DNA from: Dictyostelium discoideum | Lineage: Eukaryota | Reading direction: 5' to 3' | DNA: 64,000 nucleotides | Assembly (NCBI GenBank): GCA_000004695.1 | Contig: CM000151.3 | Location: 416,001 to 480,000, forward strand | In this document: piece after piece, positions 35,802 to 52,084 of the stretch | Layout: every line of letters starts with the position of its first letter | How positions within the stretch are numbered: position 1 is the stretch's first letter | Notes under the pieces: model-generated | Told to the model about the DNA's origin: nothing | The model's input: only the letters and a program-made list of their open reading frames with translations | The model's database searches: none | Translations under genes and position numbers: made by a program

Positions 35802-38753
35802 TTATTGAATTAAATAAAAGAGAATTGAAATAATAGTAATTAATATGAATAATGATGATGATGATGATGATGATGATAGTTTTGAGCTATCACTATTATT
35901 TTTATTATTATTATCATCATTTCCTTTATACACATCAATATCAACATCAAATTCAATTAATTTACTATTGAATATCATTTTTAAACCTATTGAATCTTGA
36001 TCAATTATTGCTTTTGAAGTACATAGATAAAAACCAGTACCGTTAGAAATATTAATTTTATTTGTACTTTCCAAGTTAGCAATACATTGTAATTTACATT
36101 TAATAGCTCTTCGAGAACCATTTGGAAGAACTATACTTGCATCCATTGAATCAGTGAAACCAATACCACTAAGTTTAATTGAAAATCCATCTTTATCATT
36201 TTTAACTTGGTTGATTTTTGTGACATTTGGATCTGAATGATTTAAAATTACATTTGAAAGTACTAAATTTGGACCAATATAAACTGATACATTAAATGGA
36301 GTATATGAAATTTGAGGTGATGAAACTAATAAAACGTCATCAGTTGAATTTGCTAATTTTCTAGTTTCTTTATTATTAACTAATACCTTAACTTTATTTT
36401 CATTTAGTTTTGTTATGAATCTATTACCAGAAATTAAAAGTATACCATTACAATCATTATTAATTACTTTTTTAACTATTGGTGGTAGGGTTGAATTAAA
36501 TCCTGAAAGCAAATTATTTTCATCGACAACCATTTCAATTGGACCATTATTAAATGAATCATTATTTCTAATTTGAAATTGATTATTATTTAATAATTGA
36601 ATTTTTGAAGTGATATTAACATCATTATAATATACTTGAATCACTTTTTCAGAATTACCAAAATTATTACCATTGATTGTAATCATATCTTTTTTAGCTG
36701 AAATTGTTAAAAAATTAATAATTGGTTGTGCATATGAAAATTGATTATTTAATACAAGTGAATTATAATTTAATATATAATCTTTATTAATACCAGTACC
36801 AGATGGCATTTGACAAGTTGTTATATATTTATTTTTTGATGATACCGGAATTGAACATTGAATTGATTTTCTGGAACTATTAATAAATATATTTGGAATA
36901 ATTTGTTCATTGAATGGATAAGTAATATAGTAAATTCCAATTTCTAATTTACCATTTTCAGTTGTTGGATTACTAATTGAATTAATTTTTAATGATGGTA
37001 ATGTAGACATTGAAATTGGTATTGAATTACTTAAAATATTATTACGGTTTATTGTGATATTAAATAATTTAAATTTTAATAATGGTAATTCAAATGTTAA
37101 ACTTTTTTCATCATTTGAAACTTCAAACTTATCAATTAAAATCTTTTCATCTATACCAATACCAGTGATTTCAATAATTGAATCATTTGATCCTCTACCA
37201 ATATTAGTACCATTTAATAATACTATACTACCATTTAATAAAATTGCATTATTTAATGATGGTACATTATATGTAAATGTATTATTATTACTAACAGAAT
37301 CACAACCATCAAATGTAATAATAATTGGTAAATTTGAACCACCTTGATTTGCAGGACCCAATATACATTGAATTTCAGTTTGATTTGAGGTAATGTTTTT
37401 ACAAAATAAATCACCAATTTTAACAGTTGGCATAGATGAATATAAAAATGAACCTTTAATTGTAACAATACCACCATCATAATATGTAATTGAATTTACT
37501 GAAGTGATAGATGGAGGATAAAAACAATAAATAAAATTCTTTTCCATTGAAACATCATTTACTTTAATATTAATTGACATTTGACCTGATTCAACTCTTC
37601 TATAATTACTAACAATAATTTGTGTATGATCTCTATTAATTATGAAATTATTTTGTTTAACACCATCAAAATAGATTTCTTGAACTTTAAAAGCATTAAG
37701 ATAGAAATTATAACCATCTATGAATACATCTGAATATTTTTGATTATAACTGACCATTGTAATTATTGGTGGTGCATATGAAAAATTTTGATAATATAAA
37801 TAGTTAAAAGTAATTAATTTTGATGAACCAGAACCTGCTGGAAAACTTACTGTGAGATTACTAACATCAAATAAGGGATCATCGAAATTACCTTTAATAA
37901 TTGCATATGAAAATAGAGAAGGTTGTGGAGGAGCTGTTACTCTAATATAGTTCATTATATTCGGTTTTGGATCACTTACATAATCTTCATATAGAAATCT
38001 TAAATAACTACCAGTGATAATAATCTCATCACCTTGTGTTGAAGGGAGTTTATTAAATTTAAATATTGGTTTTGGAGTTAATTTTGATCCAATATAGAAA
38101 TTATTACAATCTTCCCAAGGTATTGAAAAATGTCTGACACATACTCTGCTTGATGAGCTACCCCATAATCTATTAATTGGTTGTTCAGATTTGAATACAC
38201 AGTATCTAGTTTGATTAATAATTGTATCACAATCGAAATAATTATTTGAATAGTTTGATATTGGTTTATCATTATTGTACATAATAAATCTTGTAAAATA
38301 ACATTCTTCACTAGTAGTATCAAAAGTATAAACTAAAGAAGTTTCATTATAAATTATATCTTTTACTGGTCCAATTCTAAGTTTTTTATCATTTGGAGGT
38401 AAAACAGATGGTGATCCAGTCATTGAAAGATTTTTAACTAATGTATCATTAATAAGCTTAAATGTAACAGTAAATTTTTGATTTACCAATGATGGTGGTA
38501 ATTTAAAAGTCATTTTCATCTCGTTGATTGATCCTTTAAATTCACTGATTTTATAAAATTGTCCATTACTATCATTTAATTCAATAATTGTTTTGTTTTC
38601 ATTTCCAAGATCAAAACCATGTATTTCAACAATACCATTTGGTAAATAAAATCCAGTGTCCAATTGAAGTCCTGAAATTATTGTAAAATGATTAAAAAAA
38701 GATAAAGAAATTAAAAATAATAAAATAATTTTATATTTAGTTTTAGAAAACAT
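35802..38753 (-). CDS. Secreted cell-surface protein (983 aa) with signal peptide, repeated IPT/TIG-like beta-sandwich modules, Ser-rich stalk and C-terminal hydrophobic anchor (SSSSSSSSLFILITIISILFYLIQ). Possibly a Tgr-like adhesion/recognition family member.
   Basis: MFSKTKYKIILLFLISLSFFNHFTIISG signal. Repeats such as PPSITSVNSITYYDGGIVTIKGSFL... and ...SISAKKDMITINGNNFGN... resemble the IPT/TIG 'P.I..i.P..G...GGT.itI.G.nF' consensus. Many N-glycosylation sequons. Confidence 0.7.
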   Translation of the reverse strand: MFSKTKYKIILLFLISLSFFNHFTIISGLQLDTGFYLPNGIVEIHGFDLGNENKTIIELNDSNGQFYKISEFKGSINEMKMTFKLPPSLVNQKFTVTFKLINDTLVKNLSMTGSPSVLPPNDKKLRIGPVKDIIYNETSLVYTFDTTSEECYFTRFIMYNNDKPISNYSNNYFDCDTIINQTRYCVFKSEQPINRLWGSSSSRVCVRHFSIPWEDCNNFYIGSKLTPKPIFKFNKLPSTQGDEIIITGSYLRFLYEDYVSDPKPNIMNYIRVTAPPQPSLFSYAIIKGNFDDPLFDVSNLTVSFPAGSGSSKLITFNYLYYQNFSYAPPIITMVSYNQKYSDVFIDGYNFYLNAFKVQEIYFDGVKQNNFIINRDHTQIIVSNYRRVESGQMSINIKVNDVSMEKNFIYCFYPPSITSVNSITYYDGGIVTIKGSFLYSSMPTVKIGDLFCKNITSNQTEIQCILGPANQGGSNLPIIITFDGCDSVSNNNTFTYNVPSLNNAILLNGSIVLLNGTNIGRGSNDSIIEITGIGIDEKILIDKFEVSNDEKSLTFELPLLKFKLFNITINRNNILSNSIPISMSTLPSLKINSISNPTTENGKLEIGIYYITYPFNEQIIPNIFINSSRKSIQCSIPVSSKNKYITTCQMPSGTGINKDYILNYNSLVLNNQFSYAQPIINFLTISAKKDMITINGNNFGNSEKVIQVYYNDVNITSKIQLLNNNQFQIRNNDSFNNGPIEMVVDENNLLSGFNSTLPPIVKKVINNDCNGILLISGNRFITKLNENKVKVLVNNKETRKLANSTDDVLLVSSPQISYTPFNVSVYIGPNLVLSNVILNHSDPNVTKINQVKNDKDGFSIKLSGIGFTDSMDASIVLPNGSRRAIKCKLQCIANLESTNKINISNGTGFYLCTSKAIIDQDSIGLKMIFNSKLIEFDVDIDVYKGNDDNNNKNNSDSSKLSSSSSSSSLFILITIISILFYLIQ

Positions 38754-42453: not shown

Positions 42454-42502
<49 letters not shown>

Positions 42503-42761
42503 CACCTTTTCCTCTTTTTATATCTTTAAAAATATCTTGATTGTCAAAAACATAGGTTTGATTTGGTTTTAATGTTGTATTGGTTTGAGGTGAAGAAATA
42601 AAAGATCTTTTATCTAAATTATTATTATTATTATTATTAAATAATGATGATGAAGATGAAGATGATGATGATGATACTTTTAAACCATGTGATGTCACTC
42701 TATTATTAATTGAATTTACACATGGTTTAATTGTTTTTATATTTTTACACAATCTTATCAT
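39398..42761 (-). CDS. Presequence protease (PreP/pitrilysin-like M16C zinc metallopeptidase), mitochondrial. Three exons: 42761..42506, 42425..41568, 41484..39398.
   Basis: Inverted zinc motif HILEH in ...VAHILEHTTLCGSKKYPVRDPFFNMLKRSLNTYMNAWTAPDHTSYPF. Colinear with human PITRM1 through ...YRDPN...HKEIREKGGAYGGG. Exon 1 looks like a targeting peptide (MIRLCKNIKTIKPC...). Donors: GTGAAA at 42505 (atypical, moderate confidence) and GTAAGT at 41567. Acceptors: ttcag|42425 and tcaaag|41484. The ORF-track 'M' at 41485 is a GTG codon. Confidence 0.85.
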
Positions 42762-43082
42762 TTTTATTGATAATAATGAAATAAAATAAATAAAAAAAAA
42801 AAAAAAAAATTAAAAATTAAAAATTAAAACCTAAAATTTGAAAAAAAAAATAAAAATAAAAAAAAAAATGAAAATAAAATAAAAATGAAAATAAAAAAAA
42901 ATGAAAAAACGAAAAACGAAAAAGGAATAAAATTTCTTTCTTTTTTTTTTTTTTTATAAACAAATATTTAAATATTTATAAAAAAAAAAAGAATTAAAAA
43001 AAGAAATAAAAAAAAAAAAAAAAAGATAAATTTATTGAGAGTTTATTAATTTTTTTTAACTTTTTTTAATCAGCATATTTTA

Positions 43083-44118
43083 AAGTTATATTTTTTGGAA
43101 TTTGGAAAGGAATAATTGTTTGTTTTATTTTTCTTTGAATTATAATTTCAGATACATATTTAGGAATTGAATCAATAGTTAATTGTTGTTTTATATCACA
43201 TATTTCTAAGGTTTTGACACCTTCTGGTATTATACCGCAGGTTAATTTATTGGTTGAAATCCCATTCTAAATAAAATAAAACAATCTTACAAGTTTTGGA
43301 AATTGAATGAAAGGTAAATTCTTGTTTTTATATCACATTAAAAACAAAAAATACAACACCTTCTGGTAATATACCCTGCAGGTTTTTTTTTGATTGAATC
43401 CATTTAATAAATAAACAGCCTTTACAGAGTTGGGAATTGAATCAATAGTTAAATCTTGTTTTATATCACCTAAAAATAAGTTCTGAACACCTTCTGGTAA
43501 TATACCTTCAGATAATTTTTCTTTGAATCCATCTAAAAGCATTACATGACGAGGTATACTTTTTAAACTATTTATTCCTTTACAATTATTTTCTAAATGC
43601 AATACCATTTCTATAATTGTTATAATTTTTTAGAAATGAATGATTCTCTGAATAAATGTAATATTTTCTTGAAAAAACTAAATAATATATATATATATAA
43701 GTTAGCATTTTACAAAGTTATTAAATTAATTGATCGATATGATTATACATACATTTTATAATTAAATCATTTTCCTCCAATTCTATTATAAAATTGCGTT
43801 GGGAAATAACTTTATTCAATCTAACACTAGAATTATTATTTAAAAAATCAATAATATTATTATTACTATTATTATTATTTAATGAATAAATTAGTTTTAA
43901 ATTATCTTTTATATTATTAATTATATGATTATGGAAATCAATGGTCTGATTGTTGTATTCTTTTAACATATTTATAATATCAATACTATTATTATTAATT
44001 ATTTAATAATGTCAACGATTGGTGATATTTAATAATTATTTCAAATGTATTTCCATCTATTGAATAATTTTTAAAATCATTTTTCTTTTTGATAAAATCA
44101 TTTATTTTATCAATAATT

Positions 44119-44198
<80 letters not shown>

Positions 44199-44684
44199 GT
44201 TATTATTAATTATTGGTGATAGTATTTCAATATCATTATTTAATGATGAATTTAAAGTTTCATTTATTAATTGATTATTTTCAAATGTTGGTGTTAATTG
44301 TTTTTTAATATCTAATTCGATTTTTGAGAGTATATCATGAATTTTTTTAAATTCTTTTGTTACTAAATCATTATTATTGTTATATTGTAATTGAATTTTA
44401 TTGAAGGTTTTATTTGATTCATTTAAAATAAATTGATCATTCCCTATTCTATCAATTATTTTTGGATATATATTATCTTTAAAATTATTCATTAATAAAT
44501 TAATTTCTTTTGTTGATGATCCATCGATTTGATTGAATTTATGACCATGATGTTTATTATTTATTGAAATACATTCAATACAACATGGAATAAAATTACA
44601 ATCTAAACATAAAACCATTAAATCCTTTTTTGTATGTATTATACATTTAGTATTATTAAAATTTTCACTCTCTTTTGATATCAT
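43083..44684 (-). pseudogene. B-box zinc-finger + FNIP-repeat gene, tandem copy 1. The B-box/coiled-coil part is intact (44684..43995). There is a 4-bp frame-disrupting difference near 43985-43995 relative to copy 2. The FNIP repeat array is mostly lost or degenerate (43085-43610).
   Basis: MISKESENFNNTKCIIHTKKDLMVLCLDCNFIPCCIECISINNKHHGHKF has the B-box C/H spacing. The 'aataattaataataatag' insertion is the 4-bp difference. FNIP-like units (GILPEGVQNLFLGDIKQDLTIDSIPNSVKAVYLLNGFNQK) are present in only ~2 copies, followed by a decayed repeat. Confidence 0.55.
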
Positions 44685-44719
44685 TTTGTGTTGTAACTGC
44701 TTTGGTTGTAAATCAAAAA

Positions 44720-44751
<32 letters not shown>

Positions 44752-44760
44752 CTCTTTATT

Positions 44761-44810
44761 TTTTAAAAATTTTGAGATTTAACAAGATTTCAAATTTGGT
44801 TTTTTTTTTT
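44761..44810 (-). promoter_or_regulatory. Conserved ~50-bp 5'-proximal element (core TTTGAGATTTAACAAGATTT) upstream of the B-box/FNIP copy 1 start. Paralogous copies at 47901-47950 and 48475-48525.
   Basis: Three near-identical copies, each 20-90 bp 5' of a unit's start (minus-strand genes) and embedded in otherwise unalignable poly-A/T sequence. Confidence 0.5.
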
Positions 44811-45459
44811 TTATTTATTCTTTTTTTTTTTTTTTTATTTTATTTCCAACAACATTTACTATTTATAAAAAAAAAAAAATAAAAAATAAAAAAAAAAAAA
44901 AAGAAATAAAATAAAAAAAAAAAATTTTAAAGAAAGAAAGAAAAAAAAAAAGTTGGTAATAAGTCCCAAAATTACCATAATAATTTCAGCCAGTTATTAG
45001 GCTGTATGGCTGCTGAAAATTACCATATTAATTTTGGCATGTGACAAATAAGATAAAAAAAAAGTATTAGAAAATTATAAATTGAAACAAATACAAAATA
45101 AAATGAAATCATTTAACAAAAAGAAATAAAAAAAAAAAAAGTTAAAAAAAAAAAAACAAGTATTAGAAACAAATGATAAAAATTTAAAACAAAATCAAAT
45201 GAAAAAAAAAAAAAAAATAAGTGTTATTGTCATTTAGATGCCAAGGAAATTAAAAATCTTAATTAAAAATCGAATACCAAAATTTATTTTTAAACAAAAT
45301 TTTATTAATAATTTATTAACTGAATGGTTAATTCTAATGTTGAGTAATATTTATTATTAAAAATGAAAAAATGAAAAAGGAATTTCATTTAATTTGAATT
45401 ATGTGAAAAGGATTTAGAATAAATTTATTTATTGAGAGTTTATTAATTTTTTATACTTT

Positions 45460-47048
45460 TTAATTATCTAAATATTTCAAAGTTATATTTTTTGGAATTT
45501 GAAATGGAATAATTGTTTGTTTTTGTTTCATTGGAATTATAATTTCACATACTGATTTAGGAATTGAATCAATAGTTAATTGTTTTATATCACATATTTC
45601 TAAGATTTTGACACCTTCTGGTATTATACCGGCGGTTAATTTTTGGTTGAATCCATCTAATAAATTAACATACTTTACAGATTTAGGAATTGAATCAATA
45701 GTTAGCTCTTGTTTTATGTCACCTAAAAACAAATTTTCCACACCTTCTGGTAATATACCTGCAGTTAATTTATGCTTGAATCCATCTAATAAATAAACAG
45801 ACTTTACAGATTTAGGAATCGAATCAATAGTTAAATCTTGTTTTATATCATATAAAGACAAATCTTCAATACCTTCTGGCAATATACCTGCAGTTAATTT
45901 TTGCTTGAATCCATCTATTAAATGAACAGAATTCACAGATTTAGGAATTGAATCAATAGTTAAATCTAGTTTTATATCACCTAAACTTAAAAAATTAACA
46001 CCTTCTGGTAATATACCTGCAGTTAATTTTTGGTTGAATCCATCCAATAAATAAACAAACTTTACAGAGCTAGGAATTGAATGAATAGTTAAATCTTGTT
46101 TTATATCACCTAAAAACAAAAATACAACACCTTCTGGTAATATACCTGCAGTTAATTTTCGATTGAATCCATTTAATAAATAAACAAACTCTACAGAGTT
46201 AGGAATTGAATCAATAGCTAAATCTTGTTTTATATCACCTAATAACAAATTTTTAACACCATCTGGTAATATACCTGCAGTTAATTTTTGATTGAATCCA
46301 TCTAATAAATAAACAGACTTTACAGAGCTAGGAATAGAATTAATAGTTAATTCTTGTTTTATATCACCTAAAAATAATCTATGAACACCTTCTGGTAATA
46401 TACCTTCAGATAATTTTTCATTGAACCCATCTAAAAGCATTACATTTAGAGGTATACTTTTTAAACTAGTTATACCTTTACAATTATTTCTAAATGCAAT
46501 ACCATCTTTATCATTGTTATAATTTTTTAGAAATGAGTGATTCTCTGAATAAATGTAATATTTTCTTGAAAGAACTAAATAATATATAAGTAAAGTTATT
46601 TAAATAATTAATCGATATGATCATATACATACATTTAAATATTAAATTATTTTCTTCTGATTCTATTATAAAATTACATTTGAAATTTTTGAAAATAACT
46701 TTATTAACTCCAATAATAAAATTAATAAAATTAATTTCATAATTATTATTATTATCATTATTTAAAAAGTCAGTAATATTATTATTATTATAGTTATTAT
46801 TATTATTATTTTTTAATGAATAAATTAGTTTTAAATTTTCTTTTATATTATTAATTAAATGATTATCGAAATCAATGGTCTGATCGTTGTATTCTTTAAA
46901 CATATTTATAATATCGATACTATTATTATTATTTAATAATGTCAATGATTGTTGATATTTTTTAATAATTTCAAATGTTTTTCCATCTATTGAATAATTT
47001 TCAAAATCATTTTTATTTTTGATAAAATCATTTATTTTATCAATAATT

Positions 47049-47137
<89 letters not shown>

Positions 47138-47289
47138 ATTAATTTGATCATTTTTGAAATCATTATTATCAACGTATATATGATTGTTATCATCAATTGA
47201 TGGATGAAAAAATGATTGAATTTGAAAAAGAACATCTGCTATTGGTCTTTCTTCAAGTTGTGATTTACCAATTGATAAATTATTATTAA

Positions 47290-47349
<60 letters not shown>

Positions 47350-47813
47350 ATAGTATTTCAATATCATTATTTATTGATGAATTTAAAGTTTCATTTATTA
47401 ATTGATTATTTTCAAATGTTGTTGTTAATTGTTTTTTAATATCAAAATCAATGATTGAGAGTATATCGTGAATTTTTTTAAATTCTTTTGTTACTAAAAC
47501 ATTATTATTGTTATATTGTAACTGAATTTTGTTATAAGTTTTATTTGATTCATTTAAAATAACTTCATTATTGCCTATTCTATCAATTATTTTGAAAATA
47601 TATTTCTTTAAAATTATTCATAAATAAAATAATCTCTTTTGGTGGAGAATCATCGATTTGTTTGAATTTATGACCATGATGTTTATTATTTATTGAAATA
47701 CATTCAATACAACATGGAATAAAGTTACAATCTAAACATAAAAGTATTAAATCCTTTTTTGTATGTATTATACATTTAGTATTTTTAAAATTATCATTCT
47801 CTTTTGATATCAT
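45460..47813 (-). pseudogene. B-box zinc-finger + FNIP-repeat gene, tandem copy 2. B-box exon (ATG 47813), poly-Asn coiled-coil middle, then ~14 FNIP repeats (46440..45460). There is a 2-bp difference relative to copy 1 at ~47600-47640, so the B-box ORF stops early (…[11 protein letters not shown]). It is probably a frameshifted pseudogene, unless a homopolymer read error.
   Basis: ORFs 47583..47897, 46517..46945 and 45460..46440 are colinear with copy 1. The FNIP consensus (..GILPEGV.nLfLGDIKQdLtIDSIP.SVk.VyLLDGFNQKLTA) is read from 45460..46440 with a 132-bp DNA periodicity. Confidence 0.55.
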
Positions 47814-47855
47814 TTTGTGTTGTAACTGCTTAAAAAAAAAAAAAAAAAAAAAAAT

Positions 47856-47894
<39 letters not shown>

Positions 47895-48184
47895 CATAAT
47901 CTTTTAAAAATTTTGAGATTTAACAAGATTTAGATTTGGTTTTTTTTTTTTTTTATTTCTTTTTATTTATTTATTTTTTTCCAATAACAATTTTTTTTTG
48001 CAAAAAACAAAAACAAATAATAAAAAGAAAGAAATTAAAAAAAAAAAAAAAAAAAAAATAAATAATAAAAAGAAAAAAAAAAAGTTTTGGAAAATTAATT
48101 GGAAAACACTAAATTTCATTTAATTTGGATTATATAAAAAGGATATAGAATAAAATTTTTTATTGATGGTTAATTAATTTTTTT

Positions 48185-48455
48185 ATCTTTTAATCTAAAC
48201 ATTTTAAAGTAATATTTTTTGGAATTTGGAAAGGAATAATTGTTTGTTTTAGTTTTCTTTGTTCACATACAGATTTTGGAATTGAATCAATTTTTAATTT
48301 TTGTTTTATATCACATATTTCTAAGATTTAAACACCTTCTGGAATTATGCCTTTAGTTAATTTTTGGTTGAATCCATCTTATAAATTAAAATACTTTACA
48401 GATTTTGGAATATAATCAATAGTTAAATCTTGTTTAATGTCACCTAAAAATTCAG
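48185..48455 (-). pseudogene. Truncated third copy of the B-box/FNIP unit. Only the 3' end and ~2 degenerate FNIP repeats remain. They are fused directly to the conserved 5' element (48477-48505). The B-box and middle region are deleted.
   Basis: 48150-48350 aligns with the 3' ends of copies 1 and 2 (…ttttggaatttggaaaggaataattgtttg…atcacatatttctaagatt…caccttctgg). No ORF longer than ~40 codons. Confidence 0.45.
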
Positions 48456-48644
48456 AATTTTGTGACGACAACAAGGTTTGAGATTTAACAAGATTTAACT
48501 TTGATGTGTTTTTTTTTTTTAAATGAATATTATTTTATATATTAAATTCAAATTATAATAATTTTCTTTTTATTTTAAGTTTATTATTCGTTTATTTATT
48601 TATTTTTTTTTAAATTAATTAATTTTGTGGTTTATTTATTTATT

Positions 48645-48681
<37 letters not shown>

Positions 48682-48710: not shown

Positions 48711-51089
48711 TTAATTTTGTGGTTTATTATAACAAATATGTTGCCATAAAATTTGATCAGGTAAAGGAGAACGAGTATTATTTAAATGTTGTTGCTCATT
48801 ACGGAAAACTATATTGAAACGATGTAAACGTTCATGTTCAATATGACGAGTATTGTATTCTCTACAAATCCATTTTCCAAGACCCATTCTAATTGTTTCA
48901 AAACTTCCACCACTATTTAAATTTTCATAAACTTTAAACCAACGATGATTACCGATACAGTCAGGATAAGGATTTGGTTTTTCACGTGTATAAGGCTCGA
49001 CATTTGGTATCCAAGTGAATAAACCTTGATTATTCCAAAGTTCAACAAGAGTTCCATCATCAAGCTCACCTTCAAAAGTGTACCACCAATGTTGTGCTGG
49101 TGGTCTTGGTGAAAACATTGACCACATTTGATCCATTCTAGTCATAAATACTAACCAATTGATAGATTGTGGTAATGTCACTGGTATACCACAATTCACA
49201 TTATTACAATTCCAACCCAATGCAAATATTATACCCATAACCGCACAAACATTAAATAATAAACCTTTAAACATTCTTTTAACTCTTTTATTTCTAATTA
49301 ATTTACGTTGATAATTACAATTAATTTCATTTTCTTCTTCACTTTTTAATAATGCATATTCATTATTATTTTCTTCACTATTATTATTGTTATTATTATT
49401 ATTATTATCGATGATATCTTCATTACTACTATCTAGTAGAGTACCATTTAAAAGTTCATTACGTTTTTGTAATAGTTGTTGTTGTTTTTGATTTTGAATT
49501 TGTTGAATTTGAGTTTGTTGTTCTTTAGTTAATGATTTTGGCTTTAGTACTAGGATATCATCAGAAATGAAAACAATGATTCTTTCCATCAACTTCAATA
49601 CTTTTTTACCATACAATGTCACCAATGGTAATTCTAAAACTGAAACCAATGGCCAAAGTATTGGTGACACTTTACAAACTGATACCATTGCTTTATAACC
49701 AGTATATTGATTACCTTTAATATCTCTTGTAATTATCCAATTATTTAATTGTTCATTAATATGATCATTTTGATTTGCACCATCATTTATATCATTACCA
49801 TTATTAACATTATTATTATTACCAATTAAACCACTTGGTGAAAAGATATTATGTAATCCATTATTAGTTTGAATGAAACAACATTCTTGATCAGAGAAAA
49901 TTGGAGTTGGTGAAATTTCAACGTCTGGTAATAAGAGAAATGTTGAAACCAATGCTGTTATGTTATACCCATGACGACCATTGTAATAAATTTTGAAATC
50001 TGTTCTTTCACGAGTTCTTAAATAGTTGAATAGTTTATCCCAAAACCAAGTTGGATAAATTATCAATGTACCAGTTGCACAAGTTGGACTGAAAATACCT
50101 AACCTCATGAAAGCACCGAACCCAATATGTAACATTGTGAACCCAAATGCACCCAATGCTCTAATTTGTGCTGTGAAAACTGGTGAAAAGAATAACACCG
50201 ATCCAAATCCTTCATAATACAATACAAGTATAGTCATTAACTTTAAAGCATTTGGAAATTCAATAATATAGTCAACTAAAAATGTACGGAAATAGTCTAA
50301 TTGTAATGCATAATATGATGCAGTATAATCAACTCTCCATTCATCTCCAGTTTTATGTACATATGAAAATACATATAAAAATATAACTTGACAAATTATT
50401 GAAAATGTTACTTTTTTTAAAATATATATATACATTAGTAAGATAATAATAATAAATTAATTAATTATTATATTAAATAATTTACTTACCAAAATTAGTT
50501 AAAACAAATTTCTTTTTTTCTAATCTTAAAACTGGTCTTTTGAAAGCACTATCAATTGAAAAAACAGAACCTAATGGAAGAAAGATACCAAAGAATGAAA
50601 TTACTCTTAGATAAACATCACCACCATGACCAACAACATTATTTCTGGCTTGTAATGAAATTACAAAAAGGTAATGTAAAAACATATTAAGTCTTGAACG
50701 ATACCCAATAGTTAATAAAAAGCAAACTAGTATATTAATTAAAAATAAAATTTGAATACCTTCAATTGATCCAATCATCATATGAAATGAAAACCATGAT
50801 TTATTCCAAAATACTTCTGAAACTGTTGATCTTGGTAAAATTCCTTCATCTAAAAAAAAAAATTAAAAAATTAATATATATTTTTAAATATTTTATATAG
50901 ATATGTTATAACATATTTACCAGAATAATGAGCTTTAATATCAGGCCATCTTTCAATTATATCGTACATTCCGATTAAGCCAATGCATACTCTAAAAGCA
51001 GCCAAAGCTCTTTTATCAACTCCAAACATTGTTTGGAATTTAGAGACTGGCGTAATTGGTTGCTTTTTGTTTACAACCCCTAATCCCAT
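48711..51089 (-). CDS. Lipase maturation factor family protein (LMF1/LMF2, TMEM112-like). Three exons: 51089..50921, 50849..50489, 50410..48711.
   Basis: Exon 1 is MGLGVVNKKQPITPVSKFQTMFGVDKRALAAFRVCIGLIGMYDIIERWPDIKAHYS. Exon 2 is DEGILPRSTVSEVFWNKSWFSF... (compare LMF 'GREGILPA'). The exon 3 C-terminal domain ...WLVFMTRMDQMWSMFSPRPPAQHWWYTFEG...NQGLFTWIPNVEPY resembles the LMF motif '...PRLDWQMWFAALGP...'. Donors gtaaat at 50920 and gtaagt at 50488. Acceptors tttag|50849 and aaaaaag|50410. Phases 1/1. Confidence 0.75.
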
Positions 51090-52084
51090 TTTTAATTCGA
51101 TTATTTTTGTAAAAGTTTTCTTTTTTTTTTTTGAAAAAAAAAAAAAAATTAAAAGATTAAATATAAATTTATAAATATATATAAATATATATAAATAGAT
51201 TTTTTTTTTTTTTTTTTTATCTATGGAATTATTGCAGATAAAAAATTATGTGAATAATTATTGTAATAAAATTAGAAAATTAAAAAAAAAATTAAAAAAA
51301 ACAAAATTATATTATTAAATTTATTTATATTAATTTTTTTTTTTTTTTTTTGAAAAAATGAAATAATTTACAATGGAGAAAAAAAAAATAAAAATAAAAA
51401 TAAAAATAAAAATAAAAATAAAAATAAAAATGTTATGATTATATAATTGTTTTATATTTTTTATTTATTATTAATTTTTTTTTTTTAATTGGTTTTTTTT
51501 TTTTTTTTTTTTTAATATTATTTTTTTTTTTTTTTAAAAATAAATAAAAAAAAAAAAAATGTTTTTGATAGTGGGGGGAAATTCTCACAATGTATAAGTG
51601 TATGAGAAAGAATATTATATACCTAATTAAGATAATTAAAACATTGAAATTTCGTTGTAAAATGTCTCTGTGTGTGAGTGTGTGTGAAATTATTTGTTTT
51701 TTTTTTTTTTTTTTTTTATAGTATGTGCGCAAAAAAAAAAAGCAATTAAAAAAAAGAAACAATCCTTAAAGTTAAATATATTACATTATTAAAAAAAAAA
51801 AAAAAAAAATAAAAAAAAATAAATAAAAAAAAAATTTTAAAAAATTTATAAAAAACAAATTAAATTAAAAAAAGGGGTTGTTTAACTTTGTGATTACAAT
51901 TTTTTTTTTTTTGTATCATTAATAAATGATAGATCGTTATTGGTGGGGTTTTTATTTTTATTTATTTTTTTTTTTTTTTCAACACACTATTTTTAGGATT
52001 AATTAAATTATGAATTTTGAAAGGTCCACTTTTAGAATTATTTACAAAAAAAAATAATTAAAATAATTAAAAAAAAAAAAAAAA

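Follow-up and report, generated by a model that had tools for sequence, protein, structure and literature searches.

We describe a tandem cluster of genes that combine a B-box zinc finger with FNIP repeats, located on chromosome 2 of Dictyostelium discoideum AX4 within a stretch of 64,000 nucleotides (positions 416,001 to 480,000 of contig CM000151.3, assembly GCA_000004695.1; hereafter the window, whose numbering is used unless a compared locus, L001 to L007, is named). It is probable that the locus arose by a recent tandem duplication of one B-box/FNIP gene, specific to the D. discoideum lineage, that the lesions in its two long units are errors of the AX4 sequence, and that a 20-nucleotide (nt) upstream motif was copied along with the gene. 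Units 2 and 1 would be real, probably functional genes, and unit 3 a dead stub. All three units lie on the minus strand and follow each other, in the order of transcription, as unit 3, unit 2 and unit 1. The original prediction, made from the sequence of the window, had described a tandem B-box and FNIP cluster of about 2.5 units with a common upstream element, each unit damaged. Three related minus-strand units are indeed present. However, damage is confirmed for unit 3 only: another D. discoideum assembly has uninterrupted versions of units 2 and 1, and the frame-breaking differences are confined to small clusters of mismatches.

Unit structure and a second assembly

Unit 2 runs from an ATG at 47813 to a stop at 45460 and encodes a B-box, a long helix, poly-Asn and 14 FNIP repeats, the full architecture that had been predicted for it. 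Exon 1 (46633..47813, minus strand) contains the B-box (codons 14-48, 47774-47670), the long helix, two poly-Asn tracts and a linker. It is followed by a phase 1 intron of 58 nt (46575..46632, minus strand, GTATGT...TTTAG), whose splicing joins both frames exactly, and by exon 2 (45460..46574, minus strand), which carries about 14 FNIP repeats, the C-terminus and the stop. The conceptual protein matches the Pfam FNIP family with E=3e-60 and 200.5 bits (cut-off 21) in seven double-repeat stretches, that is, about 14 repeats. According to Tandem Repeats Finder, the double repeat has a period of 129 bp (43 amino acids (aa), 22+21) and is present in 6.9 copies at 45550-46434, and not the period of 132 bp and 44 aa proposed earlier.

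Unit 1 is organised in the same order. Exon 1 (43753..44684, minus strand) encodes the B-box, helix, poly-Asn and linker, the intron (43678..43752, minus strand, GTATGT...TTTAG) has 75 nt, and exon 2 (43066..43677, minus strand) encodes FNIP repeats. The original account of both full units made no mention of these canonical GTATGT...TAG introns, which account for the frame junctions at 46632-46575 and 43752-43678. Introns were also considered as the cause of the breaks at about 47600 and at 43998 and were rejected, as there is no GT...AG at either place; these breaks are genuine in the window sequence.

The nature of the breaks differs from what had been proposed. The frame of unit 2 shifts after the B-box by two bases, as predicted, but through two separate 1-base gaps (47605 and 47594) that lie within a 68-bp patch with 11 differences from the second assembly and are absent from the latter. 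In unit 1 the frame is lost near 43998, where a 4-bp frameshift had been proposed; we find one extra T, seen in the window only, plus one extra Asn codon. Exon 2 of unit 1 contains additional lesions in the window: there is one A too many at 43592, the sequence at 43385-43238 is garbled and one 129-bp double repeat is absent. Unit 1 has fewer repeats than unit 2; eight clean repeats are present in the second assembly.

The comparison was made with a 22-kb locus (L001) of the D. discoideum assembly GCA_054883475.1 (locus tag ACTFIT), which was reached via the neighbouring HTTM-like protein. When further D. discoideum assemblies were sought through the neighbour genes, ACTFIT alone was returned. 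Its annotation contains a gene of 765 aa at the position of unit 2 and a gene at the position of unit 1. Both are translated from uninterrupted open reading frames (ORFs), unit 2 as a protein of 765 aa with the 58-nt intron and unit 1 as a protein of 552 aa with the 75-nt intron and eight FNIP repeats. Exon 1 of unit 2 is intact there (L001 13252-14434).

In the 22-kb alignment, the approximately 16 kb outside the cluster differ between AX4 and ACTFIT by two substitutions and by changes in homopolymer length. Within the cluster, one patch (47661-47444) shows 13 substitutions and two 1-base indels, and the ACTFIT bases restore the frame of unit 2. Another patch (43481-43238) shows 24 substitutions and 10 indels, the missing repeat included. 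The extra bases at 43998 and 43592 are among the isolated changes. In the garbled stretch of AX4, base doublings stand beside substitutions (CC for C, GGG for GG, AAAAA for AAAA). ACTFIT unit 1 is not a copy of unit 2 pasted in during polishing, since its repeats are about 10% diverged from those of unit 2. Moreover, AX4 and ACTFIT have the same sequence for a Tgr-like gene at 35802-38753 (983 aa, single exon, with Ig_TgrO1 and TIG domains), which suggests that the two strains are nearly isogenic.

Differences between the two assemblies were also seen elsewhere. A third patch (51434-51765) has six substitutions and one indel in about 330 bp; it is intergenic, upstream of the HTTM-like gene and unrelated to the repeats, and it suggests uneven sequence quality in one of the two assemblies. 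Homopolymer tracts differ by 6-12 bases at 47855-47866, 48670-48681, 42494-42503 and other places; the poly-T tract that separates the motif of unit 2 from its ATG is among them.

Unit 3 is of another kind. Translation and Pfam identify a dead FNIP tail at 48190..48450 (minus strand) that comprises the last 2.5 repeats or so, the C-terminus and the stop (FNIP match with E=8.7e-14 and 51.8 bits). It has in-frame TAA codons at 48381-48379 and 48330-48328, and neither a start codon nor a B-box. Its tail is 84.5% identical to that of unit 2, and about 45 nt of upstream DNA are retained beside it; the description of unit 3 as a 3' FNIP remnant fused to the 5' element was accurate. AX4 and ACTFIT show zero differences from 47955 to 48669, the stops of unit 3 included. 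The disabling lesions of unit 3 are thus reproduced in an independent sequence, while all lesions of units 1 and 2 are absent from GCA_054883475.1. Unit 3 is the only demonstrated relic in the cluster.

Origin of the frame breaks in units 1 and 2

Judging from the comparison of the two assemblies, the AX4 reference sequence is most likely at fault for the damage seen in units 1 and 2. The window is strongly AT-rich and contains poly-Asn coding tracts. The frame breaks would be base-calling or assembly errors in a repetitive AT-rich stretch, AX4-private mutations being less likely. Base doublings accompanied by substitutions look like the tail of a poor Sanger read.

Alternatively, the lesions could be real: mutation, unequal crossing-over, gene conversion or a combination of these would have inactivated units 1 and 2 in the AX4/NC4 lineage, and the cluster would be decaying in this strain. 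We consider this unlikely. The lesions are present in the sequence, and unit 3 shows that decay happens at the locus. Unit 1 is short of exactly one 129-bp double repeat, as unequal crossing-over would give, and the searches run found no AX4 protein for either unit. However, real decay would have to explain why over 10 independent changes that break the frame, along with some 37 substitutions, fall within about 0.5 kb of a 22-kb region that is otherwise nearly identical to ACTFIT. A comparable cluster of differences occurs in unrelated intergenic DNA (51434-51765), and the base-doubling pattern of the changes also speaks against this explanation. Furthermore, at positions conserved in the family, ACTFIT is nearer to the family consensus than AX4 (for example LLMNNFK versus LFMNNFK).

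Further information came from the divergence of the two genes. Between the ACTFIT alleles of units 1 and 2, the synonymous divergence (dS) is 0.13 and the non-synonymous divergence (dN) 0.055, with a dN/dS of 0.43 overall, 0.31 for the B-box and helix and 0.45 for the FNIP repeats. These rates indicate purifying selection on average since the duplication.

Several points nevertheless weigh against reading the lesions as errors in otherwise functional genes. The dN/dS of 0.43 is an average constraint and not a constraint on each copy separately. The two assemblies alone do not directly separate an error from a real AX4 mutation, and the comparison rests on one further D. discoideum assembly; should ACTFIT derive from a wild isolate, the lesions could be genuine changes confined to AX4. 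The patch of unit 2 consists chiefly of substitutions and not of indels, which favours real lesions, is less typical of read-tail errors and could stem from gene conversion by an unseen paralog. The absence of AX4 protein entries, for its part, rests on a word-limited search and exact look-ups. That word-limited homolog search and the look-ups returned no AX4 protein matching unit 1 or unit 2. Exact look-ups of the AX4 ORFs and of the ACTFIT products gave no entry in the protein collection, and a homolog search with the N-terminus stripped of poly-Asn gave no matches. The literature searched contained nothing useful on reference errors at this locus.

The observation amounts to a quality flag, as two apparently intact genes (765 and 552 aa in ACTFIT) look broken in the AX4 reference. 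Units 1 and 2 would be overlooked, or taken for pseudogenes, in knock-out, proteomic and family-evolution work that relies on AX4. It is also a caution that gene decay should not be inferred from a single reference in AT-rich repeats.

The 20-nt motif and other non-coding elements

The 20-mer TTTGAGATTTAACAAGATTT occurs in exactly three copies in the window (expected 0.25; one of 100 shuffles reached three), and no further site with three or fewer mismatches was found there. The copies are exact at 44771, 47912 and 48477, so the 20-nt core is preserved in all three units, as first noticed. Copy 1 (44771..44790, minus strand) starts 106 nt upstream of the ATG of unit 1 and lies upstream of a poly-T tract (44749-44715). 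Copy 2 (47912..47931, minus strand) starts 118 nt upstream of the ATG of unit 2 and lies upstream of a poly-T tract of 61 nt (47892-47832). Copy 3 (48477..48496, minus strand), which reads AAATCTTGTTAAATCTCAAA in the gene sense, is not followed by a poly-T tract. In ACTFIT the motif starts 106 nt upstream of both ATGs; the distance of 118 nt in the window is due to a poly-T tract that is 12 T longer.

The motif had been proposed to be a functional promoter or 5' untranslated region element. In Dictyostelium, poly-T tracts end about 2 bp before transcription start sites (PMC3371697). Since such tracts lie between motif and ATG, this rule places the motif outside the transcript and not in the 5' untranslated region. 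It would be promoter-region DNA, about 80-100 nt upstream of the transcription start predicted in this way. We also checked 600 nt upstream of 11 other B-box/FNIP genes, a sample rather than a genome-wide set (seven from ACTFIT chromosome 5, three from D. cf. discoideum and the syntenic gene of D. firmibasis). None of the 11 carries the 20-mer, the best matches having 5-8 mismatches, which is the level of shuffled sequence. The enrichment upstream of family members expected of a functional element was thus not seen in this sample.

The motif is not conserved to an unusual degree. Over 300 nt of upstream sequence, units 1 and 2 have 75.5% identity, and a block of some 45 nt that includes the motif is well conserved between them. 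The surrounding non-coding sequence was said to have diverged; this is true of unit 3 when compared with units 1 and 2, but not of those two compared with each other. All three units also agree without a mismatch over runs of 20, 18 and 17 nt within the coding tail that is dead in unit 3. As runs equally long occur in this dead tail, the conservation of the motif is what the age of the duplication (dS 0.13) would predict, and selection is not needed. The 20-mer would be upstream DNA copied with the gene and private to the cluster, its identity being as expected for a dS of about 0.13 without selection. Identity between young duplicates is not by itself evidence for a regulatory motif.

It could be argued that the 20-mer is a selected cis-regulatory site, with half-sites GTTAAATCTT and GTTAAATCTC 10 bp apart, bound by a factor that drives the gene pair. 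Its survival in the stub would then reflect function or a residual promoter, and this possibility is compatible with our explanation for the genes themselves. The offset (-106) is identical before both intact ACTFIT genes, the motif lies in the most conserved block of the upstream region, and it has an internal direct-repeat structure. Moreover, the loose pattern TTGTT N3-9 CTYAA N0-2 TTTTTWAA matches only upstream of B-box/FNIP genes in about 195 kb. However, this composite pattern was written after seeing both sets of sequences and is hence circular, and a profile made from the chromosome 5 upstream box does not retrieve the window motif. The motif is missing from the 11 other members, the syntenic D. 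firmibasis ortholog included, and unit 3 has no poly-T tract or start codon after it. Identical runs of the same length exist in non-functional sequence and, at a dS of 0.13, we estimate that a 20-nt identity between two copies has about an 8% chance per position. A motif private to one cluster can still be functional, which counts against our reading of it as passively copied DNA; even so, we find a selected site rather improbable.

Another origin that we regard as possible, if tentative, is that the motif is a leftover FNIP repeat in inverted orientation, the trace of an old rearrangement that took place upstream of the ancestral gene and was copied in each duplication. This too is compatible with a motif co-copied with the genes. 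On the plus strand the motif reads E-I-stop-Q-D-L-T, to be compared with D-I-K-Q-D-L-T in the FNIP repeat. In unit 3 the plus strand TGAGATTTAACAAGATTTAACT-TTGAT aligns over a 28-nt stretch with the FNIP sense sequence TGATATAAAACAAGATTTAACTATTGAT with a local alignment score of 33, reached by none of 500 dinucleotide shuffles, but the margin is small (top shuffle 31). On the plus strand, 48487 is the only site of the 14-mer AACAAGATTTAACT, and all its minus-strand occurrences fall within FNIP repeats (expected 0.15 with one mismatch). On the other hand, the scores of units 1 and 2 do not stand out from shuffled sequence, being reached by 83 and 103 of 500 shuffles, and this genome contains many short AT-rich matches. 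The motif region of unit 3 and the FNIP remnant beside it form a perfect 14-bp inverted repeat (48421-48434 and 48487-48500), whose arms are 52 nt apart. It is a long shot that the 20-mer and its unit 3 extension are an inverted FNIP fragment kept for a reason, such as hairpin transcripts or small RNAs acting on FNIP genes, or a recombination hotspot driving expansion and contraction of the family.

Several chromosome 5-type paralogs examined have a box of their own, GATTTTGTTTTT(T)nCTTAATTTTTTAAG, about 110-160 nt before the ATG (L003 5865-5890; L004 5896-5925 and 8479-8510; L006 9846). We considered whether this box is homologous to the window motif. The two are alike by eye, and the post-hoc pattern is specific in about 195 kb, but the chromosome 5 profile misses the motif, and homology is not claimed.

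A palindromic element (44955..45050), with a G+C content above its surroundings, lies between units 2 and 1 and is separate from the 20-mer. Its sequence is GTCCCA..AAAATTACCATAWTAATTT..TTCAGCAGCCATA. Related copies are present in the chromosome 5 B-box/FNIP cluster (L003 200-375 and 5585-5645 (= L004 12515-12690)), where they form near-perfect hairpins (-94.8 kcal/mol, z -16), whereas the window copy folds weakly (z -2.6). The element could be a repeat resembling miniature inverted-repeat transposable elements, a small-RNA precursor or a regulatory module, and the palindromic element of the chromosome 2 and 5 clusters could play a part similar to that suggested for the inverted FNIP fragment. 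An assignment as a mir-7131 precursor (RF03716) was rejected (19.8 bits against an Rfam gathering score of 74), and nothing on mir-7131 was found in the literature searched. Rfam scans of the window and the compared loci, and a tRNA scan of the window, gave no match at gathering level.

A block after the stop, AAAAAATTAATAAACTCTCAATAAA, is kept in all three units (43030-43057, 45420-45447 and 48150-48180), with AATAAA-type polyadenylation signals. Units 2 and 3 have about 60 nt more of downstream flank in common, which unit 1 does not have.

Locus history, protein architecture and known relatives

The cluster is flanked by the HTTM-like gene DDB_G0271510 and a PreP-type M16 peptidase gene. The adjoining ORF at 48711-50435 (minus strand) matches the AX4 protein DDB_G0271510 with 100% identity. 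In D. firmibasis the syntenic interval contains a single B-box/FNIP gene beside PreP (L007 16269-18227, 627 aa), while that of D. citrinum (L002) contains none. With one gene here in D. firmibasis, no gene in D. citrinum and two genes plus a stub in D. discoideum, the interval fits the birth-and-death dynamics invoked in the original prediction, with a single death in place of three. FNIP-repeat genes belong to the largest and most frequently duplicated gene families of dictyostelids. The biology of the locus is ordinary in this respect: it is one more small tandem FNIP cluster, a routine family expansion.

In D. citrinum the interval between the HTTM and PreP genes holds instead a secreted-looking protein of 482 aa with Ser/Thr-rich repeats (L002 13145-14593), right-handed beta-helix-like by eye. 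Another ORF of the window, the beta-helix gene DDB_G0295819 (56505-57932), is about 8 kb away and matches its AX4 protein exactly.

The gene product is a TRIM-like protein that lacks a RING: its B-box2 zinc finger is followed by a helix of about 110 residues, by poly-Asn linkers and, at the C-terminus, by a leucine-rich repeat (LRR) domain of the FNIP type. The zinc ligands of the B-box (C14, H17, C26, C29, C35, C38, H45 and H48) are invariant in the 12 aligned family members. Scores for zf-B_box (PF00643) are 21.4 and 20.2 bits, below the Pfam gathering score of 24.1; PF00643 is pre-assigned in the database to 11 of 19 homolog matches, among them nine of the 11 homologs in the zinc-ligand alignment. 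An AlphaFold model of residues 1-163, with a mean predicted local distance difference test (pLDDT) of 85, shows a small zinc-finger fold and then a single helix (55-162, pLDDT mostly >90), probably a coiled coil. The best PDB matches of this model are TRIM B-box2 domains (MuRF1, TRIM54), with a root-mean-square deviation of 1.4-1.5 A and a TM-score normalised to the target of 0.70-0.76, and also the KAP1/TRIM28 tripartite motif; the Foldseek E-values of these matches are weak (at least 0.025). Eight Cys/His ligands in B-box2 spacing and, on superposition of the model, the B-box fold support placing the domain in the B-box family. Pfam finds no RING domain, and only 13 residues precede the B-box, which starts at residue 14.

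Membership in the FNIP family (PF05725) is indicated by Pfam matches above the gathering score and by tandem repeats of about 22 residues with the FN...IP/LP signature (LLDGFNQKLTAGILPEGV / LGDIKQDLTIDSIPKSVK). The FGxxFN motif (double phenylalanine spine) was not found in these repeats, which read DGFNQ or GDIKQ, the FG that should stand two residues before FN being absent. As a class of LRR, FNIP repeats have been characterised structurally, with crystal structures of Crov588 and Crov539/537, and Dictyostelium has hundreds of members, mostly with 'LP' sub-motifs (PMC9525666). To call the family Dictyostelium-specific, as had been done, is too narrow, since FNIP repeats are also reported from giant viruses and Entamoeba (PMC9525666; bioRxiv 10.64898/2026.03.01.708701).

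The closest comparisons are with relatives of the cluster. The syntenic D. firmibasis gene has the same neighbours (HTTM-like and PreP), orientation and architecture, but it is a single copy, is about 60% identical, has an Asp/Asn-rich N-terminal extension and lacks the 20-mer upstream. The chromosome 5 paralogs (AX4 DDB_G0289849, DDB_G0290679 and DDB_G0290101; ACTFIT_001230 and ACTFIT_001129) have the same order of B-box, helix and FNIP repeats, identity being 57-62% over the first 150 aa and about 60% over the FNIP region, and they also form tandem clusters with the 129-bp double repeat. They differ in their chromosome and in having their own upstream box, GATTTTGTTTTT..CTTAATTTTTTAAG, in place of the 20-mer. 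Unlike these paralogs, the window copies are not represented among AX4 proteins in the searches run. The top match to unit 2 (P0001) was considered as an ortholog and rejected, being located in a chromosome 5-type cluster of D. cf. discoideum.

With the FNIP/FGxxFN LRR proteins (PF05725), the products of the cluster share the 22-residue repeat, the FN...(I/L)P signature and a very strong Pfam match. Here, however, a DGFNQKL..ILPEG type of 22 aa alternates with a degenerate GDIKQDL..SIPxS type of 21 aa, without FG. With TRIM/RBCC proteins such as KAP1/TRIM28 and MuRF1, they share a B-box2 fold followed directly by a long helix, but they have no RING, and an LRR domain takes the C-terminal place of SPRY, NHL or similar domains. 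The protein would most likely work as a TRIM-like scaffold or sensor, dimerising via its helix and binding partners via the LRR solenoid. As in TRIM/RBCC proteins, the C-terminal repeat domain could thereby act as the substrate- or ligand-binding module.

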